DNA of 64,000 nt from Enterobacillus tribolii (lineage in GTDB: Bacteria; Pseudomonadota; Gammaproteobacteria; Enterobacterales; Enterobacteriaceae), in contig NZ_QRAP01000005.1 in NCBI RefSeq assembly GCF_003363015.1, forward strand, positions 330,820-394,819. Reading direction: 5' to 3'. This document shows, piece after piece, positions 40,118-60,683 of the stretch. The position numbers and the translations under genes were made by a program. Below the pieces are notes generated by a model. The model did no database searches. It was not told where the DNA came from and worked only from the letters and a program-made list of their open reading frames with translations. Each line of letters begins with the position of its first letter. Positions within the stretch are counted from its first letter, which is position 1.

Positions 40118-40261
40118 GTTTTTTCATGGAAAGCCAGGGGGTATTAGGCTGCTGGCTTTCTGATTAACGTTGAGTCGTCAAAGAAGATAAAGGGGGCTGA
40201 TGCCAGCCACGGTATCTTACTTAATACTGGCTGGGTGACTTCGGTTTGAAGATATAAATGG

Positions 40262-41221
40262 TCAATCTTCGTTATAGTCAGGGACAATGTTACACCATTC
40301 ATCTCCATCGAAAGTCCAGACAGCAGAGGATGAAGCAATTAACATCATAGAATTACTGCTGTCCATCGAGCCTGATGGATGAATCACTTCCCCATTGCAA
40401 ATAAAAAAGTCTTTAATACTATTCCCATCCCAAATGAAAAAGTCTGCCTCCCCGATCCCCCAAAGCATATTATTAAACCAGCACAAATCATTAAGCTCAT
40501 CATGCAATTCAATAATATCTATTTTTTCCCAGGTATTCTTTTTTCCCCGCCAAATTGCGCTTCCAGATGCCACATAAACAAAACCATCACCAGCACACAC
40601 AACATTTTTCAATTTATCATTTGTTGGAAATCCACATTGCTGCCATGTTTGGCCATCAAACCACCAAATGTCTCCTTTCCCACCAACCGCATAGACTTCA
40701 CTTTCAGAAAATCCCGATATATCTTCAAATCCGTAATCAAAAATATCTTCTCTGTCACGGTCAATTTTAAAATGGATTCCATTTACCATTGGCCGCCAAT
40801 CATTAATTCCATACCGTTTTGATACTAATCGCTTTAAACCTACTGCCCAGGCGTATCCATCAATCATTTTGACTTTTCGGATGAGAGCACTGTCATTCCC
40901 GCCAACCAACTCCGGTTCCCAGGTTGTTTTCCCCCCACCGCTGGGTAAGGCAAACCCACCAATACTATCAACCATGAGGCCTTGTGATACAGGTTTTTGA
41001 GATGCGCCAAGCACACTGGAAAACGCCTCATCAAATTGTATCGATGAGTAACCCAGTTCATCATCCCCGGCGTCTTCAATAAGAGTTACTTGCCTCATAT
41101 CATCATCTGTACAGTTTTCAGCCTTAAGATAAATGATATCGCTTTCCCTAATGGCGCAGTCGGTAATAATGTAATTGTTCAGTATCTTTTTCCAATCTTT
41201 TTTTGCCAGCTTCTTTTTCAT
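40262..41221 (-). CDS. hypothetical protein with repeated W/F-x-F-D-G-x-x-W blade-like motifs (low-GC islet)
   Basis: ~319 aa from ATG 41221 (GGAG RBS). Repeats: DIWWFDGQTWQQ, AIWRGKKNTWEK, FFIWDGNSIKDF, AVWTFDGDEWCN. No signal peptide. AT-rich codon usage unlike the flanking genes. Confidence 0.5.
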   Translation of the reverse strand: MKKKLAKKDWKKILNNYIITDCAIRESDIIYLKAENCTDDDMRQVTLIEDAGDDELGYSSIQFDEAFSSVLGASQKPVSQGLMVDSIGGFALPSGGGKTTWEPELVGGNDSALIRKVKMIDGYAWAVGLKRLVSKRYGINDWRPMVNGIHFKIDRDREDIFDYGFEDISGFSESEVYAVGGKGDIWWFDGQTWQQCGFPTNDKLKNVVCAGDGFVYVASGSAIWRGKKNTWEKIDIIELHDELNDLCWFNNMLWGIGEADFFIWDGNSIKDFFICNGEVIHPSGSMDSSNSMMLIASSSAVWTFDGDEWCNIVPDYNED

Positions 41222-41450
41222 TTTATTCTCCGTATTTACTAGCAGTCCTGTCATCTGGAGCCTAACCCTGGTGATTTTTCTATCTGGGAACTAATTGCTC
41301 TGATCCTTTTAGCCCTCCCACCTCAAGATCTGTCAGTTTATCCTTATCTACCAACACCAGACTCTATTTCTATGCACCATTCACTGAATCACCCTGACTA
41401 ATAAATAAGAAACCGAGCATTAATCCGGCTTCTTATGATAAATCAAAAAG

Positions 41451-41738
41451 CTAACTGGAAGTCATCGACGCCAACCGTCCATTATTATCCTGTAAAATAA
41501 AACTGGTACCATAAACACGTACAGCAGGACTAACGTGATTCTTCAGCTTATTCTCTGACTCAAGGAATATGTCGAATGTATATCGTTTTCCAGCTTCAAA
41601 GTGATAGCCATAGGTAGGAATACATTTATCTGAGGACACAGGCACATTAATGCTAAACTTTTTTAAAATGTTCTCTTTATTGCCTACCTCCATAATGATG
41701 AGAGTAACCAGTTTTTCATCATCTTCTGGTTGAACCAA
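41451..41738 (-). CDS. hypothetical small protein / possible gene fragment (low-GC islet)
   Basis: 95-aa ORF initiating at TTG, with an internal ATG (MEVGNKEN...). No recognisable domain. Upstream frames are broken. Confidence 0.25.
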   Translation of the reverse strand: MVQPEDDEKLVTLIIMEVGNKENILKKFSINVPVSSDKCIPTYGYHFEAGKRYTFDIFLESENKLKNHVSPAVRVYGTSFILQDNNGRLASMTSS

Positions 41739-42042
41739 AACACAAACATCATTATTAACAGTAGTTACTTTGGCATCACAATCTTGTTGTAATCAATTGA
41801 GTTACCGTACACAGCCCGGGCCAGAACAATGACCATGGAAGCATTTTTCACCCCATAGATCAATTAGGCATTACTTAAATATAATTTATGAAATCAACAA
41901 CTTTTCGATATTCCCTTTGACGGCATATTTCTTTTCACTCACTGAGTTTTAAGCGTTTCGCCACCGCCCTTTCGGGCGGCAATCAATAAAGCAACAATGC
42001 ACTGAAAACGGAATCGAATGGCCCGTAGCCAGTACCTCCCAA

Positions 42043-44763: not shown

Positions 44764-47501
44764 CACACGCCCCGATCGTCCGCCTCCGGCAGGTCAGCCA
44801 GCAGTACGGACAAACGCGGGCGCTGCAGGAAATCACGCTGGATATTCCGGCACGCCAGATGATCGGGCTGATCGGCCCGGACGGCGTGGGAAAATCCAGC
44901 CTGCTGTCATTGATCGCCGGCGCGCGCAAAATCCAGAGTGGCGAAGTGTGGGTGCTGGACGGCAACATGGACGACGCCGCGCACCGGCGCGACGTGTGCC
45001 CGCGCATCGCCTACATGCCGCAGGGGTTGGGCAAAAACCTTTACCACACGCTGTCGGTCTTCGAGAACGTTGATTTCTTCGGCCGTCTGTTCGGCCATAA
45101 CAAAGCCGAGCGGGAGGCGCGCATCGACGATCTGCTGCACAGCACCGGGCTGGCGCCGTTTCGCGATCGCCCGGCGGGCAAGCTTTCCGGCGGGATGAAG
45201 CAAAAGCTGGGCCTGTGCTGCGCGTTGATCCACGATCCCGAACTGCTGATCCTGGATGAGCCGACCACCGGGGTTGATCCCCTGTCGCGCGCCCAGTTCT
45301 GGGATCTGATCGACCGCATCCGCGAACGGCAAACCAACATGAGCGTGCTGGTCGCCACCGCCTATATGGAAGAAGCGGAGCGCTTCGACTGGCTGGTGGC
45401 GATGGACGCCGGCAACGTGCTGTCTACCGGCAGCGCCGCCGAACTGCGCGGGCAAACTCACTGCGATACGCTTGAGGAAGCGTTTATCGCCCTGCTGCCG
45501 GAAGAGAAGCGCAGCGGCCATCAGGCGGTGGTGATCCCGCCGCGTGACGCCAGCGACGATGAAACCATCGCCATTGAAGCGCAGGATCTCACTATGCGCT
45601 TTGGTGACTTCGTCGCGGTCGATCACGTTAACTTCCGTATTCCGCGCGGTGAAATCTTCGGCTTTCTCGGCTCTAACGGCTGCGGTAAGTCCACCACCAT
45701 GAAAATGCTCACCGGCCTGTTGCCGGCCAGCGAGGGCAAAGCCTGGCTGTTCGGTCAGGAGGTCGATCCGCGCGATATCGAAACCCGCCGCCGTGTGGGC
45801 TATATGTCGCAGGCATTCTCCCTGTACAGCGAACTGAGCGTGCGGCAAAACCTTGAGCTTCACGCCCGGCTGTTTCACCTGCCGGAGGAGCAGATTCCGG
45901 CGCGCGTGCAGGAAATGAGCGAGCGCTTCATGCTTACCGGGGTGGAAGACGCCATGCCGGAAGCGCTTCCGCTGGGCATCCGCCAGCGTCTGTCGCTGGC
46001 CGTGGCGGTGATTCACCGCCCGGAAATGCTGATTCTCGATGAGCCGACCTCCGGCGTCGATCCCATCGCCCGCGACATGTTCTGGAGCATGATGGTGGAT
46101 CTGTCGCGCCGCGACGGCGTTACCATCTTCATCTCCACCCACTTTATGAACGAGGCCGAGCGCTGCGACCGCATTTCGCTGATGCACGCCGGTAAAGTGC
46201 TCGCCAGCGACACCCCGCACGCGCTGGTAGAGCAAAGCGGCCTGGCGACGCTGGAAGAGGCGTTTATTGCCGCGCTGCGCCAGGCGTCCGGCGACGCGGG
46301 CAACGCGCCGCCGGAACCGCCCGTTATCGCAGAAAACACGCATACGCCGGAGCGGGAACATGCCGGACGCAGGGGCTTCAGCCTGGCGCGCATGTTCAGC
46401 TACAGCCTGCGTGAGTCCCTGGAGCTGCAACGCGATCCGGTGCGTTCCACGCTGGCGTTGCTGGGGACGGTGATCCTGATGTTCATCATGGGCTATGGCA
46501 TCAGTATGGACGTGGAAAACCTGCGCTTTGCGGTGATGGATCGCGATCAAACCGGTACCAGTCAGGCCTATACGCTGAACCTTGCCGGATCGCGCTACTT
46601 TATTGAACAGCCGCCGCTCGCCGATTACAACGAAATGGAACAGCGGCTGCGCAACGGCGAGCTGGCGGTAGCGATCGAGATCCCGCCGAACTTCGCGCGC
46701 GATCTGGCGCGCGGGCATACGGTGAAGATCGGCGTCTGGGTAGACGGCGCCATGCCCAACCGCGCCGAGACGGTACGCGGCTACGTGCAGGCCATGCACA
46801 TGACCTGGCTGACGGAGATGGCGACCCGCCAGACCGGCAGCGTGGCAAACGGCGCGCTGCTCGACATCGAAACCCGCTACCGCTATAACCCGGACGTCAA
46901 AAGCCTGCCCGCCATCGTACCGGCGGTGATCCCGCTGTTGCTGATGATGATCCCGGCGATGCTCAGCGCGCTCAGCGTCGTGCGCGAAAAAGAGCTGGGT
47001 TCCATCATCAATCTGTACGTTACGCCGATCACCCGGGCGGAGTTTATCATCGGCAAACAGCTCCCTTACGTGGTGCTGGGCATGTTTAACTTCTTCCTGC
47101 TGTGCGCCCTGTCGGTGTTCATCTTCGGCGTGGATCATAAAGGCAGCTTCCTGACCCTGACGCTGGCGGCGCTGCTCTACATCACCACCGCGACCGGTAT
47201 GGGGCTGTTGATCTCAACGTTCATGCGCAGCCAGATCGCCGCGATTTTCGGCACCGCGATCATCACCCTGATCCCCGCCGGGCAGTTTTCCGGCATGATC
47301 AATCCGGTATCGTCGCTGGAGGGCATGGGCCGCTGGATCGGCAATATCTACCCGACTACCCACTTCCTGACCATCACCCGCGGAACGTTCTCCAAAGCGC
47401 TGACGCTGGTCGATCTGTACGCTTCGTTTATTCCGTTACTGATCGCCGTGCCGGTGATCGTCGGGCTGAGCGTCATACTGCTGAAGAAACAGGAGGCCTG
47501 A
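44760..47501 (+). CDS. rbbA: ribosome-associated ATPase RbbA (tandem ABC ATPase domains fused to an ABC-2 permease)
   Basis: 913 aa with two Walker A (GPDGVGKSS; GSNGCGKST), two LSGG signatures and a C-terminal 6-TM ABC-2 domain. Confidence 0.85.
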
Positions 47502-48625
47502 TGCGTAAGCTGGGAAATATTTTCAATCTGGGCATCAAAGAACTGCGCAGCCTGTTGGGCGATAAGGCGATGCTGGCGCTGATCGCGTTTTCGTTTACCC
47601 TCTCGGTTTACTCCACGGCGACCGGCGTGCCGGGATCGCTGCACATGGCGCCCATCGCCATCGCCGATCAGGATCAATCCCAGCTTTCCACGCGCATCGT
47701 CAACAGCTTCTACGCGCCCTACTTCATTACGCCGGCGATGATCGATGCAAATCAGATCGATCCCCTGCTCGACGAAGGAAGCTACACCTTTGCGCTGAAT
47801 ATTCCGCCCAACTTCCAGCGCGACGTGCTGGCAGGGCGTCAGCCGGCAATCCAGCTTAACGTGGACGCGACCCGCATGAGCCAGGCTTTCCTCGGCAACA
47901 GCTATATCCAGAACATCATTACCGGAGAGGCCAGCGAATTCGCATCGCGCTTTCGCGCTAACACTGAGCTGCCGGTCGATCTGGAAATCCGCACCCGTTT
48001 TAACCCTAACCTGACGCAGTCATGGTTCGGCGGCGTGATGTCGATTATCGACAACATCACCATGCTGGCGATCATCCTGACCGGCTCGGCGTTAATCCGC
48101 GAGCGGGAGCACGGCACCATTGAGCATTTGCTGGTCATGCCGATTACGCCGTTTGAGATCATGGTGGCGAAGGTGTGGTCGATGGGGCTGGTGGTGCTGG
48201 TGGCTTCCGGGCTGTCGCTGGTGTTCGTCGTTCAGGGGCTGTTGCAGGTGCCGATTGAAGGCTCCGTGCCGCTCTTTATGATGGGCGTGGCGCTGAGCCT
48301 GTTCGCCACCACTTCCATCGGCATTTTTATGGGAACGATCGCCCGCTCAATGCCGCAGTTGGGGCTGCTGACGATCCTGGTGCTGCTGCCGCTGCAAATG
48401 CTGTCCGGCGGCAGTACGCCGCGCGAAAGCATGCCGGAGCTGGTGCAGGATCTGATGCTGACGATGCCGACAACCCATTTCGTCAGCCTGGCGCAGGCGA
48501 TACTTTACCGCGGGGCGGATTTCAGTATCGTCTGGCCACAGTTCGTATATTTGCTGGTGATTGGCGGCAGCTTCTTTTTGATCGCACTGAGCCGGTTCAG
48601 GAAGACCATCGGGACGATGGCGTAG
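47501..48625 (+). CDS. yhhJ: ABC-2 family permease YhhJ
   Basis: 374 aa. The start overlaps the rbbA stop. ABC-2 type membrane domain. Confidence 0.85.
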   Translation: MRKLGNIFNLGIKELRSLLGDKAMLALIAFSFTLSVYSTATGVPGSLHMAPIAIADQDQSQLSTRIVNSFYAPYFITPAMIDANQIDPLLDEGSYTFALNIPPNFQRDVLAGRQPAIQLNVDATRMSQAFLGNSYIQNIITGEASEFASRFRANTELPVDLEIRTRFNPNLTQSWFGGVMSIIDNITMLAIILTGSALIREREHGTIEHLLVMPITPFEIMVAKVWSMGLVVLVASGLSLVFVVQGLLQVPIEGSVPLFMMGVALSLFATTSIGIFMGTIARSMPQLGLLTILVLLPLQMLSGGSTPRESMPELVQDLMLTMPTTHFVSLAQAILYRGADFSIVWPQFVYLLVIGGSFFLIALSRFRKTIGTMA

Positions 48626-48627
48626 GG

Positions 48628-49191
48628 CTACTCTTCCGTCAGTTCGTCGTACAGGCCACGCAGGCGGGTGCGCAGGTAGAGCACGGCTTTGTGCTTACGT
48701 GACAGCAGCGCCTGCACGCTGGCGCCGGATTCTTCCGCCAGCGCCTTAAAGCTGTAGCCATGCAGCTCGGTCTTTTCGAAAACGTCACGCTGCGCCGCCG
48801 GCAGCTCCGCCAGCGCTTCGTCCAGCTCTTCCCAGATCAGCGCGCTCAGGTACTCTTCCTCCGGCGTTTGCGGCACGCCAAACAGGGTTTCAGCCAGCTC
48901 GTTTTCCGGCGCATCTTCTTCGTCGCCATCTTCGTCATAATAGACGGGCAGCGGCAGCTCGCGCTTTTTCCGCGCCCGATCGGTGATCTCATTGCGCGCG
49001 GCGCGGAACAGCCAGGCGGCGACGTTCTCCACCGGCTGTTCAATCTTCATGAGTTGATAGGTGACTTCCTGCAGGATATCGTCCGCATCATCACGCACCG
49101 CCGTGCGGCCACGGATAAAGGCTTTCAGCCGCGACCGGCAGGCGTTAAGGGCGGACATCACCAGGGAATCGCCTTCCTTACCGACCTTCAT
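48628..49191 (-). CDS. ECF-family RNA polymerase sigma factor
   Basis: Sigma-70 region 2 (DADDILQEVTYQLMK) and region 4 HTH (FKALAEESGASVQALLSRKHKAVLYLR). The ATG at 49191 lies 6 nt after the stop of the upstream His-rich gene. Confidence 0.7.
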   Translation of the reverse strand: MKVGKEGDSLVMSALNACRSRLKAFIRGRTAVRDDADDILQEVTYQLMKIEQPVENVAAWLFRAARNEITDRARKKRELPLPVYYDEDGDEEDAPENELAETLFGVPQTPEEEYLSALIWEELDEALAELPAAQRDVFEKTELHGYSFKALAEESGASVQALLSRKHKAVLYLRTRLRGLYDELTEE

Positions 49192-49196
49192 TACGC

Positions 49197-49688
49197 TCAC
49201 TCTGCTTCCGGCGTTTTCTGTTCGCCGTTTTCCGGCTGACGGCAGCATTCCCGTTCATTCCGCGGGCCGCGACGACCGTCGTGCTCAGGGCGCCCGCAAT
49301 GGCCATGATGACCGTGATGACCGTGATGACCGTGCCGTCCGAATCCGTCGCGCCGCTGGCGGATAAATTCTTCGCGCTCTTCCGGCGTCATGTTCATCCA
49401 GCGCGCATGCATCCGCCGGCGGTCACGCGCCATGCCGAACATGCCCGGACGCATTCCCAGCCCGCCGAACAGAATGCGGCACAGGATCAGCAAACCCAAC
49501 GCCTGCCAGAAACCAATGCTGCTCACGCCGAACAAGGCGGGCAACAACGCATTCCACAGCGACATGACCAACAGGCCCAGCACGACAAACAACACCGCGC
49601 CGATCGCCAGCGGTTTAACCATCGGATGACCGCCGAAGCCATCGTGACCGCGGCCATGACCATGACCGCGCATACCAAATTCTCTCAT
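49197..49688 (-). CDS. His-rich two-TM membrane protein (candidate metal-sensing anti-sigma/regulatory partner of the ECF sigma)
   Basis: ~163 aa from ATG 49688 (AGGAGAG RBS). N-terminal GHGHGRGHDGFGGH, two hydrophobic helices, and a C-terminal GHHGHHGHHGHCG plus CC pair. Translationally coupled to the ECF sigma. Confidence 0.5.
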   Translation of the reverse strand: MREFGMRGHGHGRGHDGFGGHPMVKPLAIGAVLFVVLGLLVMSLWNALLPALFGVSSIGFWQALGLLILCRILFGGLGMRPGMFGMARDRRRMHARWMNMTPEEREEFIRQRRDGFGRHGHHGHHGHHGHCGRPEHDGRRGPRNERECCRQPENGEQKTPEAE

Positions 49689-49927
49689 TTTTTCTCTCCT
49701 CATAGCATAAGCTGATTACGCTTTCTGATGAGGTAGACGAATGAGCGACGGAAATATTGCCGGAAAAATAGAAAATTTTTAGTCGCCGGGGAAATTACGT
49801 CAGGAAACGTGCTCCGCCACTGATATTACGGACGGGGGGAAGCGCGATTAAAAAGCAGGGAGTAATGATAACACGCATGAAAAAGATGGGCGAAATACCC
49901 TCATTCCGCCCACCTCAATAAACCACC

Positions 49928-50662
49928 TTACGCCGTCAACCCGCCATCCAGCACCAGCGTTTGCCCGGTCATATACCGGCTGTCATCGCCGATCAGAAAC
50001 GCCGTTGCGCGCGCCACTTCCAGCGGGGTGCCGAGCCGTTTCAGCGGAACCTGTTTGCGCATCGCCTCCAGCTTGGCTGGCGGCATGGCTTCGGTCATCT
50101 CACTTTCGATGATGCCCGGCGCCAGGCAGTTAACGCGCAGGCCGAAACGGCCCAGCTCCGGCGCCAGCGAACGGCACAGGCCGATCATCGCCGCCTTGGT
50201 CGCGCCGTATGCAGTCTGCCCGATGTTACCCTTGATGCCGGTGACCGAAGACATCAGCACCAGCGCGCCGTCGCCGTTCATGATCATCGCCGGCAGCAGG
50301 TGCCGGTTCCAGTAAAACACCGCGTTCAGGTTGGTATTGATAACCTGTTGCCAGGTTTCCGCCGTTTGGTGGATGTGCAGGCCGTCCTGCGTAATGCCGG
50401 CGTTGTGGATCACGGCATGCGGCGCGCCGTGTTTTTCCAGCAGTTGCTGCGCCAACACATTAACCTGCTCTTCATTGCTGCCGTCGCACGGGTAAGCCTC
50501 TACCCATCCCGGCAGGCCGGCACAGGCGTCAACGACCGCCTGGCTGGCTTCACCGGTGTTACGGCAGGTGAACACCACGTTCCAGTCACGCGCCAGCTCT
50601 TCCACCAGCGCGCGACCGATCCCCCGGCTACCGCCGGTAATCAGCAGCCATTTTCTGTTCAT
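49928..50662 (-). CDS. SDR-family 3-oxoacyl-ACP reductase (FabG-like)
   Basis: ~245 aa from MNRKWLLITGGSRGIGRAL (TGxxxGIG Rossmann motif). Catalytic Y..K (YGATKAA) and S (SSVTG). Confidence 0.75.
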   Translation of the reverse strand: MNRKWLLITGGSRGIGRALVEELARDWNVVFTCRNTGEASQAVVDACAGLPGWVEAYPCDGSNEEQVNVLAQQLLEKHGAPHAVIHNAGITQDGLHIHQTAETWQQVINTNLNAVFYWNRHLLPAMIMNGDGALVLMSSVTGIKGNIGQTAYGATKAAMIGLCRSLAPELGRFGLRVNCLAPGIIESEMTEAMPPAKLEAMRKQVPLKRLGTPLEVARATAFLIGDDSRYMTGQTLVLDGGLTA

Positions 50663-50919
50663 GGCGCTGACTTCTGCTGTTGATCCGCCAGATGCTGGCA
50701 CAGTTCGCCCAGCGTCATTTCCGGGTTCTTGGTAAACATTTCCGCGTCGATGGTGACGCTGAACTCACGCTTGGCCAATACCATCAGTTCAACGTAGTCC
50801 AGGCTGTCGAGCTTCAGCTGGTGGAGAGGCATTTCTGCAGAAAGCTCATCCATCTCCATATCTTTAGCATCGCAGATCATTTCGCAGACTTTTTCATATA
50901 CGGTTTCATACTGGCTCAT
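50659..50919 (-). CDS. acyl carrier protein
   Basis: 86 aa with a phosphopantetheine attachment site (LKLDSLDYVEL, DSL motif). Confidence 0.75.
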   Translation of the reverse strand: MSQYETVYEKVCEMICDAKDMEMDELSAEMPLHQLKLDSLDYVELMVLAKREFSVTIDAEMFTKNPEMTLGELCQHLADQQQKSAP

Positions 50920-50937
50920 AGATAGTTCCCTTACTCA

Positions 50938-51759
50938 TTATTGTTGATATGAATTGACCTGGGCCGGCAACGTTTTCAATGTTACCGCGGTGGACAGCAA
51001 CGGCTGTTCATCCGACCAGGCCTGAATCACTATGCTGAGAACAAACCCACTTTCCCCTGAACCTGTTACTAAGGTGGGCTGAATCGCACAGTGCATACCC
51101 GAACCTGCGTGGAAATCGGCATCGGGCGAGAATAAACATGCATTAAAATGAACATCATGGTGCGTCTGTACTACCGGAACGCGGCCAAATACGTCGATCA
51201 GTGCATTGGCCCGTAATTGCGGAAAAACTTCTTTTACCATCCGCATGGTGTCCGGCGCTTCCACAATGCGCTGGAACAGCACGGCGTCCAGAAAACTCCA
51301 CAACCGGGCCGGTTCCTGCGCCGGTAGCGGAAAACGATGGCTCAGCGTACGTAGATCGTCCGAGGAATAGACGAGCACGTTGTCCGCGGGCGCGATCGTC
51401 AGCGGGGCGGCGGCGGTCAGCTTGGCGGAAAAGCAAACACTGTCGCTCTGCTCATCAACCAGCGTTCCCCTGACTTTCGTCCCGTCCGGCTGGCCGGTCA
51501 GCGACATCTGATAAGACTTATGGCACATCAGCGGCTGGCGCAGGCGTGCGCTGAACATGTAGAACTCCGCCTGCGGCGATGCCTGCAGCAACGCCGCGCT
51601 AAGATATTGTTTCATGTCCAGCAAAGCACGCATGCCATGTACGCTGAGATCGTCGCCGCCCAGCGCGCGGGCGCGCTCCAGATCGAAATGGATCGGGTTG
51701 TAGTCGCCGGAAAAGGCGGCCCACTGTTCGGCGTCACGTACGGTATACGTCAGGATCAT
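50938..51759 (-). CDS. MaoC-like double-hotdog (3R)-hydroxyacyl-ACP dehydratase
   Basis: 273 aa. The N-terminal hotdog carries FSGDYNPIHFD (MaoC dehydratase signature). A second hotdog-like half follows. Confidence 0.65.
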   Translation of the reverse strand: MILTYTVRDAEQWAAFSGDYNPIHFDLERARALGGDDLSVHGMRALLDMKQYLSAALLQASPQAEFYMFSARLRQPLMCHKSYQMSLTGQPDGTKVRGTLVDEQSDSVCFSAKLTAAAPLTIAPADNVLVYSSDDLRTLSHRFPLPAQEPARLWSFLDAVLFQRIVEAPDTMRMVKEVFPQLRANALIDVFGRVPVVQTHHDVHFNACLFSPDADFHAGSGMHCAIQPTLVTGSGESGFVLSIVIQAWSDEQPLLSTAVTLKTLPAQVNSYQQ

Positions 51760-53015
51760 GATCCGCTCCGGCTGATGATCAACGCCGCGTTAGCCCCGCC
51801 GAAGCCGAAGCTGAGATTCAGCGTATTATCCAGCTTGCCCGCCCGGTGCCCCTCGGCGACATAGTCCAGATCGCACGCCGGATCGGCGTTCTTCAGGTTG
51901 CAGGTAGCCGGCATCATCTGATGCTCCAGCGCCTGCAAACAGACGATGGACTCGAAGCTGCCCGCCGCCGCGATCAGGTGACCGGAATAAGACTTGGTGC
52001 TGGAGATCGGAATACGGTATGCCTGCTCGCCCAGCGCGATCTTCACCGCTTCGGTTTCGTTCAGGTCGTTGAGCGGCGTGGACGTACCGTGCGCGTTGAT
52101 ATAATCAATATCCTGCGCCGTGAATCCCGCCTGCTTCAGCGCCCGCTCGATGGTTTTGACGCGCGCCACCTTGTCGCCCGCCGGGGCGGTAAAGTCGAAG
52201 GCGTCGGAATAGTTTCCATAGCCTTTGATTTCGCCCAGGATGGTCGCGCCGCGCGCCAACGCTGCTTCGCGCTCTTCCAGGCACAGCACGGCGGCGCCTT
52301 CAGACAACACGAAACCGTTGCGATCGGTGCTGAACGGGCAGCAGGCACGGGTGACCTCTTCTTTTTCACTGGCCAGCGCCCCCAGAACATCGATGTTCCA
52401 AACCGATGCGTCGCTGCGCAGGGATTCACCCGCGCCCGCCAGCATCATGGACGCCCGGCCGCTGCGGATGATTTCAAATGCATCGCCAATGGCGATGGTG
52501 CCGGTCGCGCAGGCGGCAATCGGGGAGTTCTGGTAACCGCGCAGGCCCCAGAACAGGCTGCACGCCGCGGTGGCGACGTTCGGCATCGAGAAGAAGCAGC
52601 CGAAAGGCGAACCGACGCCGGAACGCTTGTATTCATCATAAAATTCGTAAGTTTCATCCTGCCCGGCCCAGCCGGTGCCGATGATGGCGCCGCACTCCAG
52701 CAGATCGTAATGATCCTTCGGATGCCCTTCGCCGAAGGCCATCGTCATGGCTTCACGCGCGGCGGCCAGCGACAGGCGCCCATGGCGCGGCAGGCGGCGG
52801 CGAATGGCGGCCGGTACGCCTTTCAGGCTGGGTTCTTCATCAATCAGGCCGAAGAAACGGGCCGAAATCCCTTCATCGGCACGGTCGACAAAACGGTATC
52901 CCAGGCGATACGCCATGATGGAATCCCAGCTTTCCCCGGCATTGCCTCCCAATGGGGTGACGGCACCATAACCTGTGACGACAACCCGACGCGGCATATT
53001 ATTATCGTTATCCAT
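51756..53015 (-). CDS. beta-ketoacyl-ACP synthase (FabB/FabF-like KAS)
   Basis: 419 aa with N-terminal VVVTGYGAVTPLG, an active-site Cys region and C-terminal His/His/Gly-rich motifs (GHLIAAAG; FGFGGANA). Confidence 0.8.
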   Translation of the reverse strand: MDNDNNMPRRVVVTGYGAVTPLGGNAGESWDSIMAYRLGYRFVDRADEGISARFFGLIDEEPSLKGVPAAIRRRLPRHGRLSLAAAREAMTMAFGEGHPKDHYDLLECGAIIGTGWAGQDETYEFYDEYKRSGVGSPFGCFFSMPNVATAACSLFWGLRGYQNSPIAACATGTIAIGDAFEIIRSGRASMMLAGAGESLRSDASVWNIDVLGALASEKEEVTRACCPFSTDRNGFVLSEGAAVLCLEEREAALARGATILGEIKGYGNYSDAFDFTAPAGDKVARVKTIERALKQAGFTAQDIDYINAHGTSTPLNDLNETEAVKIALGEQAYRIPISSTKSYSGHLIAAAGSFESIVCLQALEHQMMPATCNLKNADPACDLDYVAEGHRAGKLDNTLNLSFGFGGANAALIISRSGS

Positions 53016-54408
53016 TATTCATCCCTCCGAGGTCTTTTTCGTTATCGACACCCCCACCCAACGCCAGCCAAAGCTTCATCGTGGCGTACAAGTAGTTGTA
53101 TTGCATGGTCAACAAATTGTTCTCACTACTAAGCAGGGAATCCTGCGCATCCAGTAAGGTCTGGAAAGAAACGGCACCGGCCTGATATTGGCTGGTGACC
53201 AGCGCCAGACGGCGCTGGCTGAGCTCCAGGTCGCGCATCAGGCTGGCTTTTTGGCTTTCCGCATTCAGGCGTTGCGCCATGGCGTTATCCACGTCGGAAA
53301 GCGCGCTGTAGGCCGTGCTGCGGAACTTCACCGCGGCCTGTTGGACGTTCAGGTCGGACTGTTCGATCGTCAGCTGAACCGTATTCCACTGAATAAAAGG
53401 CAACGCGACGGCGGCGCCCAACGTCCGCACCGGGTTGGTGAACCATTGGGAAAATACGGAGCTACCGGCGCTTGCCCCGGCAGACAGCGACAGCGAAGGG
53501 TAGAAACTCAGTTTCGCCGCATCCTTACCCGCCAGCGCGGCGCGCAGACGCCACTCTTCGGCCTGCACGTCAGGGCGATGACCGATAACCTGCAACGGAA
53601 CGCGATCGGCAATGGCGATGCTCTGCATGAAGTCGAGCGTGCTCAGCTCATCCTGACGCTGGGAGGGGGGGCGGTTAAACAGGATCGCCATCGCGTTACG
53701 CGCTTCTTCCCGCTGTTCTTTCAGATCGCGCAGGCGGTTACGTTTACTGATGACGGACTGCTCCGACTGCAGCAGATCCACCTGCCCCACGTTGCCGGCT
53801 TCATAGCGCGAATTCACCATATCGAGCGTCTTTTCCGCGATCTCCAGGCTCTTTTCCTGGTTGGCGATCTGCTGATTGAGGCTGCCAATCTGCCAGTAAA
53901 GCTGCGCGGTAGTCCCGATCAGCGACAGGGCGGTAGCCTGGCGGTCGAACTCCGTCGCCTTCACTTTCCAGGCGGACTGCTCGCGCTCACGCGCCAGCTT
54001 GCCCCACAGATCCAGCTCATAGCTCAGGGAGATCGACGAACTGTAGGTTTCCTTCGGATCCGTATTGTTGTTCAGATTCTTGGTGTTGCTGGCGGAACCA
54101 CTCACGCTCACGTTCGGCGTCAGGTTGGTGTTGGTCAGCCCGGCCGCCACGCGCGCCAGTTGCAGTTGAATGCCGGCCGCCGCCAAATCGTTGTTGGTCG
54201 CCAGCATCTGGCTGATGATGCGTGAGAGCTGGGGATCGTTGAAGTTGTCCCACCAGTGAGGCGTATTTTTCAGGAACGTCGTACCGGTGCTGTCCTGCTG
54301 CTGCCAGGTGTCCGGCACCGACAGTTCCGGGCGCTGATATTCCGTTTTCGTCAGCGCGCCGCATCCGGTAAGCAGCAGGGTTAACAACGCTATCTGATAT
54401 CTTTTCAT
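53008..54408 (-). CDS. outer-membrane efflux lipoprotein (NodT/OprM family OMF)
   Basis: 466 aa with a lipobox (LLTGC) and the two coiled-coil/beta-barrel repeats typical of TolC-family OMFs. Confidence 0.8.
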   Translation of the reverse strand: MKRYQIALLTLLLTGCGALTKTEYQRPELSVPDTWQQQDSTGTTFLKNTPHWWDNFNDPQLSRIISQMLATNNDLAAAGIQLQLARVAAGLTNTNLTPNVSVSGSASNTKNLNNNTDPKETYSSSISLSYELDLWGKLAREREQSAWKVKATEFDRQATALSLIGTTAQLYWQIGSLNQQIANQEKSLEIAEKTLDMVNSRYEAGNVGQVDLLQSEQSVISKRNRLRDLKEQREEARNAMAILFNRPPSQRQDELSTLDFMQSIAIADRVPLQVIGHRPDVQAEEWRLRAALAGKDAAKLSFYPSLSLSAGASAGSSVFSQWFTNPVRTLGAAVALPFIQWNTVQLTIEQSDLNVQQAAVKFRSTAYSALSDVDNAMAQRLNAESQKASLMRDLELSQRRLALVTSQYQAGAVSFQTLLDAQDSLLSSENNLLTMQYNYLYATMKLWLALGGGVDNEKDLGGMNNG

Positions 54409-54410
54409 AT

Positions 54411-56369
54411 TTACTCGCGTGCCAGCGCCTCCGTTGGGTTAAGACGAGCGGCGTTCCTTGCCGGGAAGAACCCGAAGCACAAACCGATCAGCGCTGAGAA
54501 ACCGCACGACAACAGGACCGGCAGCAGGGTGAACACCATCGAGAACTCCTGGGTAACGAAGGAGAACAGGACCCCGAATATCCAGGAGCCGGCGATCCCC
54601 ATCAGTCCGCCCAAGACACAAATCACGATCGCTTCAATCAGGAACTGCAACATAATGTCCGCCGGCCGCGCGCCGACCGAAAGACGGATGCCGATCTCGT
54701 GGGTACGCTCCGTGACCGAAACCAGCATGATGTTCATTACCCCGACGCCCCCCACCAGCAGGGAGATCGCCGCGATGGCGGTGATCAACAGCGACATGGA
54801 GTCAGACGTTTTTTGCAGCGCCTTCGCCAGTTGATCGTCGGTCTGCGTGAAAAAGTCACGCTTCTCGTGTACCTGCTCCAGCAGCAATTCGACCCGGCGC
54901 TGCGCCTCCGACAGAGACACACCCTCATGGAAACGCAGCGTCAGTGATTCGATCGGCATAGTGCCGGACATGCGTTCCATCAGCGAGGTATACGGGATCC
55001 AGCCGCCCATCAGGCCGCCGATCACCTTAGGTCCTTTCTTGCTCGCCACGCCGACCACGCGGAACGGAACCCCCGACAGCAGGATTATTTCGCCGTTCGG
55101 ATCTTCCCCCTCCTCAAACAGGATCGACTTCGCCAGTTGATCGATGATGATGACCGGCTCGCGGTTCTCTACGTCTGCACCGGAGAAAGGCGCGCCGCTG
55201 CTGAAGTTGACGTCCTGCACGCGGAAGTAATCGTCGTTCACGCCGGAAAGCTGCATCATCGTCATCGGGATGTTGCCGCGGATGGCCTGCGCATTTTTAC
55301 CGACCACCGGCGATACGCTGTCAACGTAGGGCTGTTTTTGCAGTAGCTCTACGTCGGCCACCGACAGCGCATTGGCGTATTCGGGGCTTACCCGCCCCAT
55401 GCTCAGGCCGGGGCGGACTTCGAGCGTACTGTTACCCAGCTTGCCGATTTCCTGCATGATGCTCTGACGTGCGCCTTCCCCTACCGCCATGGACGAAACC
55501 ACCGATGAGATGCCGATGATGATCCCCAGCATGGAGAGGAAAGCACGGGTACGGTGCCCCAGCAGCGAGCGCCACGCCATGCGTACCGCTTCCGTCACGC
55601 TCAGCCAGAACGGCGGGCGCCCGTTGGAGTCCACCTTGGGCAAACCGCCGGAAGCGACGTCTTCGCGGTTGGACTCATTGACACGGTCGGCGATGATCTC
55701 GCCGTCGCTGATTTCGATGATGCGCTCGGCCTGATTGGCGATTTCCCGATCGTGGGTCACGATGATGATGGTGTGCCCGGCCTGATGCAGGGAGTGCAGA
55801 ATGCCCATCAGCTCCTGGCCGCTGGCGCGGTCCAGCGCGCCGGTCGGTTCGTCCGCCAGAATGATGCTGGCGCCGTTCATCAGCGCGCGCGAGATACTGA
55901 CGCGCTGCTGCTGGCCGCCGGAAAGCTGCGCCGGCTTATAGCCCATACGATGGCCCAGGCCCAGGCGCTTCAGCAGGTATTCAGCGCGGCTCTGCCGTTC
56001 GGCAACCGGCATCGCGGTATAAAGCGAGGGGATCGCCACGTTTTCCGTCGCCGTCAGGTACGGCATCAGGTGATAACGCTGGAAAATAAAGCCGATGTAC
56101 TGGCTGCGCAACTGCGCCAGTTGTTCGCTGTCGGCCACGTGCGCAGGCACGTCGTGGATAAACATCTCGCCCTGCGTCGGCTTGTCCAGGCAGCCGATGA
56201 TGTTCATCAGCGTAGACTTGCCGGAGCCGGAAGCCCCGACGATCGCCACCATCTCTCCCTCATGGATCTTGAGGGAGATATCCTTCAGCACCGCCACGGT
56301 CTCATTCCCCGACGGGAAGTGCCGGTAAATACCATTTAATTCAATCAGCGGCGAGGTGTCTTTCGTCAT
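54411..56369 (-). CDS. MacB-type ABC transporter (N-terminal ATPase fused to an FtsX-like permease)
   Basis: 652 aa with Walker A (GASGSGKST), signature ([15 protein letters not shown]), Walker B ([11 protein letters not shown]), then 4 TM segments with a large periplasmic loop. Confidence 0.85.
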
Positions 56370-56371
56370 AG

Positions 56372-57538
56372 CTACTTCCTGGCCATCGCGATGGTGCTGC
56401 CAATAACGACCTCTTCACCTTCCTGCAGGCCTTCCTTCACTTCGGCATACAGGCGATCATTTACGCCGGTTTTTATCCAGCGTGTTTCCACGCTATCGCC
56501 TTTTTTCACCCGCACCTGATAGGTGTTTTGATCTTTGCGCTGCCCCAGCGCGGTCATCGGCACTCTCGGCACGCCTTTAGCCTGCTCCGTGATGATGAAA
56601 ACCTGGGCTGTCATGTAAGTCCGCAGCAGGTGCTCGCTGTTGTCGATGTCGAACACGCCGTTGTAATAAACCGCGCTTTGCTGCTGGGAGGAGCTCATGG
56701 AAGAACTTTGCTCCATCAGCGCTTCATCCGGCGCGGATTGAATATTGCCCATCGTGCCTTCGTAACGGCGCTTGGGATCGGCCAGCACGTAAAACCACAG
56801 AGGCTGCCCCGGCTGTACCTTCAGGATATCGGCTTCTGAAATCCGGGTGTGGACCGTCATGGTGTCCATGTCCGCCAGCACCAGAATGGTCGGCGCGGTT
56901 TGCGAGGAAACGACCGTCTGACCTTCTTTGGTGACGATGCCCAGCACTTCGCCGTCCATCGGCGCCAGAATCTGGGTATAGCCGACGTTGGCCTTCGCTT
57001 TCTCCACCGCGGTTTCCGACTGGGTGATCTGCGCTTCATTCATGCGCAGTTGTTCAAGCTGGGCGTTATATTGCGCCTGAGCTTTCTCCAGATCGCTCCG
57101 CACGCCGGCGCCATCGCGGAACATTCTTTGCTGACGCTTCAATTCCTGCTGATACTGCTTAATCAATACGCGGGTGGAAGCGCGCTGCGCCAGCGAGCTG
57201 ACCAGCTGAGCTTCGGAGGTGCGCAGTTCGTTTTGTTGCAGCGTGGGGTCGATTTCGGCCAGCAGATCCCCTTTCTTGACCCGGTCGCCCTGCTTCACGT
57301 ACAGCTTCTTCAACTGCCCGTTAACCTGGGCGCCGACGCTGACCTGCAGCGACGGTTTGATAATGCCGGTGGACAAGACGGTCTTTTCAATATCGCCAAT
57401 GGATACCGGTTCCGTCAGCAGAGAGGCGGTTTCTTTATTTCCTCCGCTGAACATCTGGCTGATGGCTACCGCCACCAGCGCGATCACGGCCAGTGCCAGG
57501 AGAACAACCTTTTTGCGCTTTCCGCTCCATTTCGCCAT
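56372..57538 (-). CDS. MacA-type periplasmic adaptor (HlyD/RND MFP family)
   Basis: 388 aa with an N-terminal TM anchor, lipoyl/coiled-coil hairpin and beta-barrel regions. Immediately upstream of MacB. Confidence 0.8.
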   Translation of the reverse strand: MAKWSGKRKKVVLLALAVIALVAVAISQMFSGGNKETASLLTEPVSIGDIEKTVLSTGIIKPSLQVSVGAQVNGQLKKLYVKQGDRVKKGDLLAEIDPTLQQNELRTSEAQLVSSLAQRASTRVLIKQYQQELKRQQRMFRDGAGVRSDLEKAQAQYNAQLEQLRMNEAQITQSETAVEKAKANVGYTQILAPMDGEVLGIVTKEGQTVVSSQTAPTILVLADMDTMTVHTRISEADILKVQPGQPLWFYVLADPKRRYEGTMGNIQSAPDEALMEQSSSMSSSQQQSAVYYNGVFDIDNSEHLLRTYMTAQVFIITEQAKGVPRVPMTALGQRKDQNTYQVRVKKGDSVETRWIKTGVNDRLYAEVKEGLQEGEEVVIGSTIAMARK

Positions 57539-57550
57539 TTCAATGCATCC

Positions 57551-59710
57551 TTAATACGCAGCGGTCGCGACGAGTGGCTGCTCCACAGACGGAGTTGCCG
57601 AAGAGGCTTTTTCAAGCCGGCCATTTTCCATGCGATACACCTGATCAAACATCGCCAGCACCGTTTCGCTGTGCGTCACGGTAATCAAGGTCTTGCCGTA
57701 TTCGCGGCAGTGCTCCAGCAGGGTTTTGATCACCTGCTGAGCGGTAACTTCGTCCAGGTTGGCCGTCGGTTCGTCCAGCACCAGAACCGGTTTGTCGCTG
57801 TACATCGCCCTGGCCAGCAGCAAGCGCTGGCGTTGCCCCAGCGACAGCGCGGCATGGCTTTCACGGATCAGGGCGTTTTGCCCGCCGGGCAGCTTCGAGA
57901 CGACCGACGTCAGATTCAGCCCTTCCAGCGAGGCATCTACGCGCAGCTGTTTCTTCTCATCGAAGTCGGCGTCAAACAGCGTAATGTTTTGCAGCACGGA
58001 GGCGTTGAACAGAATGTCCTCCTGGCTTTGCAGGAAAAACAGGGAGTGAGCCTGACGGGCGTTAATCAGCACGTCGTCCACCGCGATCTCGCCAGCGGTC
58101 GGCGTAATCAGCCCGGCCATGATGCGCAGCAGGGTACTTTTACCGGCGCCGGATTCACCCACGATGGCCGTACTCTGGCCGCGGCGCAGGGACAACGATA
58201 AGTCGCTCAGCACCATCTGCTGCGGCTCATAGCCGAAGCAAATGCCGCGGTAGTCCAGCTGGCGCTCGAAGTGCACCACGGGCACCGGCGTCGCATCCCG
58301 CTCCTGTGCGTTTTCATCGTCGGTTTTGACCGGGAACAGATCCTTGGCGCGGGTATCAATAACGTGGATCTGGTTCTTCTGCAAAACAGAGAAAAAGATT
58401 CGGGTGATATAGGAGGTGAAGATCTGCCGGATAAAGTTATAGGCAAAGAATTCACCCAGGCTGATCACCCCGTCTTTCAGCATCGGCAGAGAAAGGAACA
58501 TGAACAGCACCATCTCAATGCTGCCAATCATCTGGTAAATGCTGTTTTTAACCTGCTCGTAAATCCGTTGCTTTTGCAGCGTGGTGAACAATGCCCAGGT
58601 ATAGCGGGCGAAATTGCTCTTGCGCTGGCTGTCCAGCCCTGCGGATTTGATGGTGGAAAAGCCCTGAATGGTTTCCAGAATATAGTCGTTCTGATCGGCG
58701 CTTTTCACCTGCAGCTGCTGGGTGTAGTAACGGTCGCGGTAAATCGCCCAGACGCTGACCAGCCCCATCAGGCTTACGCCGACGGCAGACACGGCCGCCA
58801 GTACCGGGCTGATGTAACACATCAGCGCCAGCGCAATAACGCCGATGATCCAGTCGGTGCGCAGGCCGTTATCCAGTTCAATCTTACGCGCCGCGGCCAT
58901 CTGCCAGGCTGAGAACCGGCTGAATATTTCACCGGGCGAGCGTTTGTCGAAAAAGCGCAGTTGGTTGCTCAGCAGGCGGGAAAATCCGGCCGTGCTGTTC
59001 AGAATGACGAACCGTTTGACGAACCGCTCAGTCAGTATGCGCAGCCCCATCGCCAAACCGGTGGAAGCGACAAACGCCAGGAAAAAGTAGAAATACGGGA
59101 AGTCAGTATTCCCGGCCCCCGAGAACACCTGGTTAATGGCCGAGCTGACCATGGTCGGCATGATGAACAGCGACAGGGAAATGATAAACGCGCAGATCAT
59201 CAGCCAGTAAATACCGGGAAGCTTTGAGGTTTCCTTCAGGCTCATGCTTTCCATGGCGCGGAAACGCTGGCTCTCCTTACGGGCCTTCAGCGTGGCTTCA
59301 TCGATAGTGGCTTCTTCGTCCAGCACCAGGGCATAACCGCTGATTTGCGCCTTCAGCGCATCCAGCGGCAGCAGCTGCTGCCCGATGGCCGGGTTCATCA
59401 CGCAAACGTAGTTTCCTTTACGGTAGGCCAGCACGACGTAATGGCTGGCGCCGTAGTGCAAAATCGCCGGCAGCGGCAGCGCATCGAGTTCGTTAAACGC
59501 GAACGCGACGGGGTAAACCGGGATCTTCAGATCTTCGAGAATGGAACACAGCGTCGCCAACGACGTGCCGTGCTCGGATGCGGGGTAACTCTCCCTCAGT
59601 TCGCGCAGCGGAACGTGCACGCCCTGCGTTTCCGCCAGCATCGAAATGCATGCCAGACCGCATTCATTGGTTTCTCCCTGAAATACCTGAGAAGGAATGA
59701 TCTTTTCCAT
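57551..59710 (-). CDS. peptidase-C39-domain ABC transporter (double-glycine leader-cleaving bacteriocin exporter, CvaB/LagD type)
   Basis: 719 aa. N-terminal C39 domain with catalytic Cys (QGETNECGLACI) and His (GASHYVVL). 6-TM domain. C-terminal NBD (GESGAGKST; LSLGQRQRLLLARA; VLVLDEPTANLD). Confidence 0.85.
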   Translation of the reverse strand: MEKIIPSQVFQGETNECGLACISMLAETQGVHVPLRELRESYPASEHGTSLATLCSILEDLKIPVYPVAFAFNELDALPLPAILHYGASHYVVLAYRKGNYVCVMNPAIGQQLLPLDALKAQISGYALVLDEEATIDEATLKARKESQRFRAMESMSLKETSKLPGIYWLMICAFIISLSLFIMPTMVSSAINQVFSGAGNTDFPYFYFFLAFVASTGLAMGLRILTERFVKRFVILNSTAGFSRLLSNQLRFFDKRSPGEIFSRFSAWQMAAARKIELDNGLRTDWIIGVIALALMCYISPVLAAVSAVGVSLMGLVSVWAIYRDRYYTQQLQVKSADQNDYILETIQGFSTIKSAGLDSQRKSNFARYTWALFTTLQKQRIYEQVKNSIYQMIGSIEMVLFMFLSLPMLKDGVISLGEFFAYNFIRQIFTSYITRIFFSVLQKNQIHVIDTRAKDLFPVKTDDENAQERDATPVPVVHFERQLDYRGICFGYEPQQMVLSDLSLSLRRGQSTAIVGESGAGKSTLLRIMAGLITPTAGEIAVDDVLINARQAHSLFFLQSQEDILFNASVLQNITLFDADFDEKKQLRVDASLEGLNLTSVVSKLPGGQNALIRESHAALSLGQRQRLLLARAMYSDKPVLVLDEPTANLDEVTAQQVIKTLLEHCREYGKTLITVTHSETVLAMFDQVYRMENGRLEKASSATPSVEQPLVATAAY

Positions 59711-59732
59711 GAGCGATATCTTCTAATCCATT

Positions 59733-60683
59733 CTATTCATTGATGAAATACAATGAATGCGCATGCCACAATAACCAGTCGGCCGGATGGCGGGTTATTG
59801 ACTCTTCAATAATGACCGGCATTTTCTTTTTCAACTCGCGGGCCGCAACCGGCGGCTCAATGTGAATTTTGATGCCTTTGTCGTAATACAGGTTGTAAAA
59901 CACCACCTGCGCCGACAGCACCCTGGCCAGCCGGATAATGCCGCTGTGCAAATGCGCAGGGCGGTTGAACAGGGTACAGTTCAGCTTGCCGGCCCGGGTT
60001 TCGTTGGTATCCAGGGTATAGTCCGGCGTGATGTCGGGAAAAATCATGATATTGCGCTGGTGGTCGGCGGCTTCCATGATGGAATCCATCAGGTTGCCGG
60101 CAATCATCCGGTTGTCACTGTGGATTGAGCAGTAAGTGAGGTTGACCCCGCCCATGGCGCGATCCTGCTCCTGATAAATCTCCGCGCTGGAAGACACCAC
60201 CACCGTGGCCTTCCCCGGATAAACCATGCTGCCGACGATGCCGGCCAGAATGTCCGATACCATGTGCATCGGCGCCAGGATCACCGGGGAGCCGTTCTGA
60301 TGCAGCGGTTCTACGATCTGATTAAGCTGATCGGCGCACTGCTTCAGTTCAGACTGGATCTGAGCGCTTTGCCCGTAGGTTGCGGCCAGGTCCAGCAGTT
60401 GCCGGCGCTGGGACACCCACGTATGACGCAACGGGGCCGCATCCGGCCCCAGCAAGCATCTTTTATTCTCTTCGGCCACCAGCGCCAGGTTGCGCCGGCG
60501 GCGCCCTGTCAGCCGCAGCCCGCGGCTGATGTGCGCCAGCAGAAACCCGGCGCGGTAGTCCAGGTGACGAAAGAGAAAACGGGCGGTTTTGCCGTGCCAC
60601 TCACGTGACTTGCCGACCTGTTCAGCCAGTTTCCCGGTGAAGTTTTTCCAGCTGAGATACAGCCACACGGCAAAGAAACGCAT
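59733..60683 (-). CDS. LpxL/HtrB-family (lipid A late acyltransferase-like) ACP-dependent acyltransferase
   Basis: 316 aa. Motif blocks parallel LpxL: HMVSDILAG (LpxL HFMSLELGG, HX4D/E region), FPDITPDY (LpxL APDQDY), and C-terminal PADWLLWHAHSLYF (LpxL PEQYLWIHRRFK). Confidence 0.6.
   Translation of the reverse strand: MRFFAVWLYLSWKNFTGKLAEQVGKSREWHGKTARFLFRHLDYRAGFLLAHISRGLRLTGRRRRNLALVAEENKRCLLGPDAAPLRHTWVSQRRQLLDLAATYGQSAQIQSELKQCADQLNQIVEPLHQNGSPVILAPMHMVSDILAGIVGSMVYPGKATVVVSSSAEIYQEQDRAMGGVNLTYCSIHSDNRMIAGNLMDSIMEAADHQRNIMIFPDITPDYTLDTNETRAGKLNCTLFNRPAHLHSGIIRLARVLSAQVVFYNLYYDKGIKIHIEPPVAARELKKKMPVIIEESITRHPADWLLWHAHSLYFINE

Follow-up and report, generated by a model that had tools for sequence, protein, structure and literature searches.

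What does a histidine-rich membrane protein do directly upstream of a sigma factor of the extracytoplasmic function (ECF) type, and do the two genes belong to the export operon that precedes them? The question is raised by a locus on the minus strand of a 64,000-nucleotide stretch of Enterobacillus tribolii DNA (RefSeq assembly GCF_003363015.1, contig NZ_QRAP01000005.1, positions 330,820 to 394,819 of the forward strand), the whole of which is referred to below as the window. The analysis of this locus revealed a two-gene cassette that carries its own promoter and appears in other genomes in unrelated neighbourhoods. The pair is probably an autonomous, positively autoregulated module of the ECF241 type, in which the membrane protein (hereafter the partner) would act as a membrane-anchored anti-sigma factor.

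The co-inherited gene pair

Two open reading frames (ORFs) on the minus strand fill the region 49688..48628, the first encoding the His-rich membrane protein and the second the ECF sigma factor. Both are present where a preliminary description of the window had placed a membrane protein of ~163 residues and its sigma factor:

49197..49688, minus strand: partner gene, encoding a His/Cys-rich protein with two membrane helices (163 aa; ATG at 49688, TGA at 49199-49197)
48628..49191, minus strand: sigma gene (187 aa; ATG at 49191), encoding sigma regions 2 and 4 only, with a conserved acidic linker

An AGGAGA sequence lies 7 nt 5' of the partner ATG. Another in-frame ATG (49703) falls within the Shine-Dalgarno region of this gene, and the start was set at 49688 because MR(D/E)F is where the orthologous proteins start. 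The partner stop and the sigma ATG are separated by 5 nt (gcgta), close enough to the 6 nt given earlier, and an in-frame GTG that overlaps the partner stop (GTGA) provides an alternative sigma start. The sigma gene is translationally coupled to the partner gene located 5' of it.

Relatives of the partner turned up in 291 species when one genome per species was scanned, and 80 loci were fetched, nearly all of them under Enterobacterales names. Together with five loci fetched earlier they make a set of 85, and in every one (85/85) a homologous sigma gene is placed directly 3' of the partner gene and on the same strand. The gap between the two genes is 5 nt in 70 of the 83 pairs measured, and a 4-nt overlap is seen in another 5 of the 83. 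This juxtaposition is not due to chance, and the adjacency in all 85 loci upholds the initial view of the sigma factor and the membrane protein as a tightly coupled cognate pair. The carriers (~290 species) include Enterobacter, Klebsiella aerogenes, K. oxytoca, Raoultella, Pantoea, Kosakonia and Dickeya, and none of 5,426 complete E. coli genomes carries the cassette.

The family extends well outside the Enterobacterales. In an exhaustive profile search 3,619 cluster representatives passed E<=1e-3 and 1,471 passed E<=1e-10; the family has members in Chitinophagaceae, Prevotellaceae and Burkholderiaceae. The six distant members looked up all adjoin a homologous sigma gene (6/6), whose product is 40-52% identical to the window sigma and which is placed downstream of the partner gene in four cases and upstream, overlapping it, in the other two. 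On the Caballeronia megaplasmid pSBC2-1 the order is sigma followed by partner; this sigma is 45% identical to that of the window (E 8e-44), and the partners share 53% identity over 81 residues (E 3e-19). Co-inheritance of the two genes, in either order and across phyla, is strong evidence of a functional pair.

The sigma factor, which shares 100% identity with a protein of Enterobacillus tribolii, matches PF04542 and PF08281 above their cut-offs and also TIGR02937 (E 1.8e-19, 70 bits; cut-off 42.9). The linker between regions 2 and 4 is conserved, with ELAETLFGVPQTPE.EYL invariant or nearly so in 25 diverse pairs. Against the PDB, generic ECF sigma factors were the only matches (SigH, SigL, RpoE), and none of the named NCBIfam sub-families was matched at its cut-off; SigZ, PRK12513 and a Bacteroides expansion family appear below threshold. 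As SigZ models are among the top sub-family matches (TIGR02959, E 5.5e-18), the protein could be taken for a metal-sensing sigma factor of the SigZ/CorE type (ECF238), which needs no anti-sigma factor and beside which the membrane protein would be incidental. This assignment is extremely improbable. The TIGR02959 score is 65 bits for a cut-off of 169, the Cys-rich C-terminal extension that defines ECF238 is missing (the protein ends in ...RGLYDELTEE, with no Cys), and the strict co-inheritance of the partner runs contrary to it.

Some records outside this regular pattern were also seen. The locus labelled Chryseobacterium sp. 18061 (L014, CACSKA010000006.1) is near-identical to that of Scandinavium species, and contamination or mislabelling of the record is probable. 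Plasmid p1 of Pseudomonas silvicola (L097, 2498-2791) bears a degraded, frameshifted, Pantoea-like partner gene, with no sigma-sized ORF in the ORF list within ~1 kb on either side; this copy probably represents a pseudogene remnant. One Logan contig of 2,154 bp (P0003) encodes a 248-residue protein in which the partner continues into the linker and region 4 of the sigma factor, and the lack of sigma region 2 is probably the result of a deletion or of an assembly artefact. The use of this fusion as a proxy for the complex was dropped, since MAFFT put the sigma rows on the wrong half (~18% identity).

Promoter, leader and separation from the upstream operon

The region between the partner gene and the operon upstream of it contains the following elements:

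49734..49760, minus strand: ECF-type promoter (-35 GCAATATT at 49760-49753, 14-nt spacer, -10 (C)GTCTA at 49739-49734)
49763..49780, minus strand: A/T-rich, UP-element-like tract 5' of the -35 (T-rich run conserved in 81 unique upstream regions)
49698..49733, minus strand: leader hairpin, in which CCUCAU (49733-49728) can pair with the Shine-Dalgarno AUGAGG (49703-49698)
49883..49916, minus strand: intrinsic terminator after the FabG-like gene of the operon (15-bp stem, -22 kcal/mol, followed by the AUCUUUUUCAU U-tract)

The promoter block is kept at a near-fixed position in all the unique orthologous upstream regions (81/81), with CGTCT ~50 nt before the ATG. The shared block comprises a T-tract, rGCAATATT, seven variable bases and sCTCATyCGTCTACCTCA, and the A/T-rich tract at 49763..49780 may work as an UP element. 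The arrangement AATATT-N14-GTCT is also found upstream of the homologous pairs L092, L086 and L096, the last one from Caballeronia. The position-weight matrix derived for this site gives the cassette promoter as the sole site in the 64 kb of the window; a relaxed pattern (up to two mismatches) gives five matches, where 3.5 are expected, and the cassette promoter alone is exact. The cassette sigma would be expected to autoregulate this promoter.

Upstream of the pair lies an operon of ten genes on the minus strand (61364..49928). The first five encode a DsbA-like protein, a lipid A-type acyltransferase, a C39-peptidase ABC exporter, an HlyD-type adaptor and a MacB-type pump, and the remaining ones a TolC-like protein, a ketosynthase, a MaoC dehydratase, an acyl carrier protein and a FabG-like ketoreductase; the whole resembles a system for exporting a lipid-modified peptide. 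The stop codon of the FabG-like gene (49930-49928) is followed by the terminator at 49916-49883 (z -3.55 against shuffles), which marks where the lipid/peptide export operon ends on its 3' side and lies outside the module formed by the pair.

The pair had been described at first as the 3' end of this operon (49928-61364), with a CnrY-like anti-sigma factor that could couple the export genes to Ni/Co/Zn availability. The two units are adjacent and on the same strand, with a 240-nt gap, the partner is His-rich, in keeping with metal coupling, and the operon 5' of the pair encodes export and lipid-synthesis functions. Nevertheless, such coupling is very unlikely. The terminator separates the operon from the pair, which has its own conserved promoter; a search for an ECF promoter had been suggested upstream of 61364 as well as of 49688, and the site is present upstream of the latter, with no promoter-like site upstream of 61364 or elsewhere in the window. 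Moreover, Enterobacter, Pantoea and others carry the cassette without the export operon, and the architecture of the partner is unlike that of CnrY, with no CnrX gene at the locus. Membership of the pair in the neighbouring lipid/peptide operon is therefore not supported, and the pair should not be used for inferring how that operon is regulated. An autonomous switch, offered in the same description as the other option, is favoured by the separate promoter, the terminator and the unrelated neighbourhoods.

These neighbourhoods differ from one genus to another. In Enterobacter the cassette is flanked by a methyl-accepting chemotaxis protein gene and a DsbC-like gene; in Pantoea, where it is carried on megaplasmids, the flanks are phoA and malG. 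The genes downstream of the cassette fall into 19 clusters across 81 loci, and no third conserved gene is general across them. In 12 Enterobacter loci (L021, L023, L025 and L035 among them) the cassette is followed on the same strand by a gene for a 123-residue hypothetical membrane protein without Pfam match, and in L001, L024, L032 and L044 the third gene encodes a DsbC/DsbG-like thiol-disulfide isomerase. These Enterobacter third genes, present in some lineages only, start 40-70 nt after the sigma gene on the same strand and are possible lineage-specific members of the regulon. In the window, an ABC-transporter permease gene (47501-48625, plus strand) converges on the cassette, and 2 nt separate its stop from that of the sigma gene (48628). 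This leaves no intergenic room for terminators 3' of the sigma gene, so that the sigma and permease transcripts probably overlap. At a distance from the pair, positions 40001-42000 have a G+C content of 0.41, compared with ~0.59 in the rest of the window, and may be horizontally acquired DNA.

The leader of the partner transcript can be folded into a hairpin with a minimum free energy of -15.2 kcal/mol (z -2.2). In an alignment of 58 orthologous leaders, compared with slid and shuffled controls, 78.5% of the cells of this helix are paired, versus 25-41% in the slid controls, and 28 cells show double changes versus 16.4 in the shuffles (0/500 reach 28). Clear examples of compensatory change are CCUCAGCAG/CUGCUGAGG versus CCUCAUCAG/CUGAUGAGG, together with CUUCAUC/GAUGGAG. 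The alignment thus points to moderate covariation of a predicted helix that would include the Shine-Dalgarno sequence. As the 5' arm of the hairpin begins a single base past the -10 element, the transcript driven by the sigma factor may not include it. An Rfam search of the region returned nothing real.

Architecture and probable action of the partner

The partner reads MREFGMRGHGHGRGHDGFGGH... and continues through two hydrophobic stretches and a basic segment (RDRRRMHARWMNMTPEEREEFIRQRRDGF) into a tail that contains GRHGHHGHHGHHGHCGRPEH...ECC.... The His/Gly stretches at the N- and C-termini (GHGHGRGHDGFGGH and GHHGHHGHHGHCG) flank the two membrane helices as initially described. Histidine accounts for 14 of the 163 residues (8.6%), the sixth highest content among 118 close relatives. 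In the AlphaFold2 model, built from 118 sequences, the membrane helices span residues 24-52 and 58-75, further helices are predicted at residues 85-98 and 102-116, and both tails are disordered. The N-terminal tail has 23 residues and the C-terminal part 85, the latter rich in Arg and Glu. The loop that connects the membrane helices has exactly five residues in all the close relatives and 5-8 in the distant ones, and 10 Lys/Arg residues are present in the segment that follows the second membrane helix. With such a short loop both His-rich tails would be located on the same, cytoplasmic side, and the charge distribution also places both ends there. The N- and C-termini of the modeled protein are most likely cytoplasmic, with no periplasmic domain.

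Conservation peaks at the membrane helices and at the motif (R/K)W..MTPE(E/Q)RE.F. Residues W45 and N46 do not vary among 135 diverse family members, and among the 3,619 cluster representatives the conserved core is made up of the membrane hairpin and the (R/K)W..MTPE.RE.F helix. The tails differ among relatives in length and sequence. In the Enterobacterales subfamily each tail has a median of four His, and at least one Cys is found in the C-terminal tail of 113 out of 117 members. The description of a protein larger than CnrY-type partners and His-rich at both termini is not supported as a property of the family, whose tails are variable. Part of the C-terminal tail is encoded by a tandem repeat:

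49306..49334, minus strand: 9-bp tandem repeat encoding (GHH)n in the C-terminal tail (3.2 copies, 100% matches)

In a relative whose partner is 98% identical (P0001) one repeat unit is missing, which suggests that the length of the His tract varies by slippage.

The partner is most likely a membrane-anchored anti-sigma factor that acts via its cytoplasmic C-terminal helices, and the plausible anti-sigma role assigned to it from the start is supported. The sigma factor would recognise its own promoter (GCAATATT-N14-GTCTA) 5' of the partner gene. The first gene product would be a small inner-membrane protein with both termini in the cytoplasm and a periplasmic loop of five residues, whose basic two-helix C-terminal segment (~85-116, RRMH.RWM.MTPE(E/Q)RE.F) would hold the sigma factor at the membrane. 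The 5-nt gap, through the coupling of translation, would lead to the partner being made with or before the sigma factor. A signal sensed in the membrane or in the cytoplasm would then free the sigma factor, which could amplify its own operon and switch on an unlinked regulon. In the Enterobacterales the His/Cys-rich tails are the obvious candidate for the sensor, responding maybe to a metal or to a thiol-reactive compound. Metal sensing by the pair is plausible, if speculative.

The main rival to an anti-sigma role is that the partner does not inhibit at all. It could be a co-expressed output of the system, a small membrane or metal-handling protein related to the 'heavy-metal resistance' proteins of PF13801, or a positive factor of the kind that the N-terminus of FecR is for FecI, the sigma factor being controlled in either case by other means. 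Weak PF13801 matches in 30/135 family members fit such a role. The membrane helices, including the invariant W45 and N46, are more conserved than the cytoplasmic ones, which suggests a function within the membrane, and no anti-sigma domain is detectable in the partner by Pfam and NCBIfam searches, by the profile comparison with the PDB or by comparison with FecR. CnrX and CpxP, members of the PF13801 family, are periplasmic. The motif of the partner is on the cytoplasmic side, unlike in these two proteins, and the PF13801 matches, although the commonest Pfam matches in the family, do not go beyond E 1e-4. Strict adjacency in both gene orders and across phyla is, in addition, typical of sigma/anti-sigma pairs.

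Genetic data from Burkholderia cenocepacia speak for inhibition as well. In this species the sigma factor BCAL2462 (ECF241s2) autoinduces its own operon and the major facilitator superfamily (MFS) efflux pump BCAL1510-1512, and a premature stop in BCAL2461 results in the same drug-resistance phenotype as a gain-of-function BCAL2462 allele (PMC6963507). The regulon is activated by loss of the partner or by a P51S change in the sigma factor (PMC6963507). Loss of the partner thus mimics activation of the sigma factor and not its loss (PMC6963507), which gives genetic support to the anti-sigma role. Taken together, an output or positive factor is unlikely, and so is the control of the sigma factor by other means that it entails.

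Several observations weigh against the anti-sigma module as proposed. The confidence of the AlphaFold2 model is low overall (mean pLDDT 62.5, pTM 0.26, the predicted local and global scores). The window partner has no Pfam or NCBIfam match (PF13801 included, E<=1), and the search of PDB sequences with the partner profile gave a His-tag-like match and noise, with no related structure. No relation to the Fec system emerged from comparisons of low power with single sequences: BLASTP returned no alignment of the sigma factor with E. coli FecI, and hhalign gave a probability of 0.2 for the family profile with FecR residues 1-94. The His/Cys richness of the tails is typical of the Enterobacterales subfamily and not general across the wider family; as they are not kept family-wide, these tails cannot be the universal sensor. 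Neither the position-weight matrix nor the relaxed pattern located regulon sites elsewhere in the 64 kb. Finally, BCAL2461 is a putative homologue of the window partner, and the homology shown within the Burkholderiaceae is that of the Caballeronia pair.

A bolder version of the anti-sigma reading is that the partner represents a new anti-sigma class without extracytoplasmic domain, in which the helices that follow the hairpin bind the sigma factor, the signal is perceived as the state of the membrane, by way of the near-invariant LWN/FWQALG helices, or as a cytoplasmic metal or thiol stress, and the leader hairpin masks the ribosome-binding site. We consider this possible but doubtful. If true, the His/Cys tails would be the Enterobacterales version of the sensor, drifting in length by slippage of the 9-bp repeat, and the leader hairpin would add a translational control that depends on the promoter used.

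Comparison with known systems

The preliminary description had likened the arrangement to the CnrY type. CnrY presents an N-terminal cytosolic anti-sigma peptide and one membrane helix, and relies on a separate periplasmic metal sensor, CnrX. The CnrY-CnrX-CnrH system of Cupriavidus metallidurans (ECF291; class II anti-sigma domain) shares with the window pair a small membrane protein encoded upstream of an ECF sigma factor, a short helical cytosolic sigma-binding segment (a candidate one here) in place of a four-helix anti-sigma domain, and, at the conceptual level, a connection with metal stress. However, the similarity does not go further. The window partner has two membrane helices connected by an invariant five-residue loop, its candidate binding helices are cytoplasmic and C-terminal to this hairpin, and its N-terminal tail is variable and disordered. 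There is no CnrX gene in the two-gene cassette, the next gene being convergent, and no sequence similarity was detected, so that the CnrY-type label does not fit.

The zinc-binding anti-sigma (ZAS) proteins RsrA, ChrR and RslA offer another analogy, in that His and Cys residues facing the cytoplasm could bind a metal or answer thiol-reactive stress. The partner differs from them in lacking both the four-helix anti-sigma domain and the H-x3-C-x2-C motif, which a pattern search did not find in the window protein and found in 1 of 118 close and 2 of 135 distant relatives. The SigAb-AabA-AabB system of Acinetobacter was rejected as a relative, given its different gene order and partners.

The best-matching group is ECF241, defined by Casas-Pastor et al. 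(2021, Nucleic Acids Research, PMC7826278; supplementary text in bioRxiv 10.1101/2019.12.11.873521), to which the window pair is assigned by its fit to the published group description. The members of this group belong to Bacteroidetes (68%) and Proteobacteria (24%), and the partner gene is found at +1, except in subgroups s1, s5 and s7, where it is at -1 (PMC7826278). The partner is described as having an N-terminus of ~10-20 residues, two membrane helices in succession and a C-terminus of ~50-260 residues that is charged and cytoplasmic; this partner matches PF13801 (Metal_resist) 'in some cases' (PMC7826278). The predicted promoter, with CAATA in the -35 and TCT in the -10, is autoregulated and the sigma linker is conserved (PMC7826278). 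The authors described this as the first case of an anti-sigma domain predicted to be C-terminal to membrane helices, suggested a role in metal resistance, and proposed FecR-like homology of the anti-sigma domain and a placement in the FecI clade (PMC7826278).

The window pair agrees with most of these traits. Its partner is encoded at -1 and shows a short N-terminal tail, two helices and a charged C-terminal part, its promoter fits the CAATA/TCT motif, and the linker of its sigma factor is nearly invariant. Its family is distributed over Enterobacterales, Burkholderiaceae and Bacteroidota (Chitinophagaceae, Prevotellaceae). The agreement is partial for PF13801, weakly matched by 30 of the 135 family members and not by the window protein. 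Two differences remain: the His/Cys-rich tails of the Enterobacterales subfamily are not mentioned in the group description, and the FecR-like/FecI relation was not reproduced by simple pairwise tests. The assignment also bears on a point raised at the outset, that the group of the sigma factor might indicate a partner encoded elsewhere; ECF241 is instead defined by an adjacent two-helix partner.

In the literature searched, the term ECF241 appeared in the classification paper only and no characterised member from the Enterobacterales was found. The closest experimental parallel is thus the BCAL2462/BCAL2461 pair, where an ECF sigma gene also stands beside the gene of a small uncharacterised partner, and the Caballeronia pair, homologous to that of the window, shares the same promoter. 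The gene order differs, with the sigma gene first and the partner at +1, the Burkholderiaceae partner (104 residues) is devoid of the His-rich tails of the window partner, and no counterpart of the BCAL1510-1512 MFS pump was found linked to the window pair. ECF241 is barely studied, with one paper reporting experiments on any member within the literature that could be searched, and with its unusually clean promoter and compact two-gene layout the Enterobacterales subfamily lends itself easily to tests of how a partner of this kind acts and to which signal it responds.

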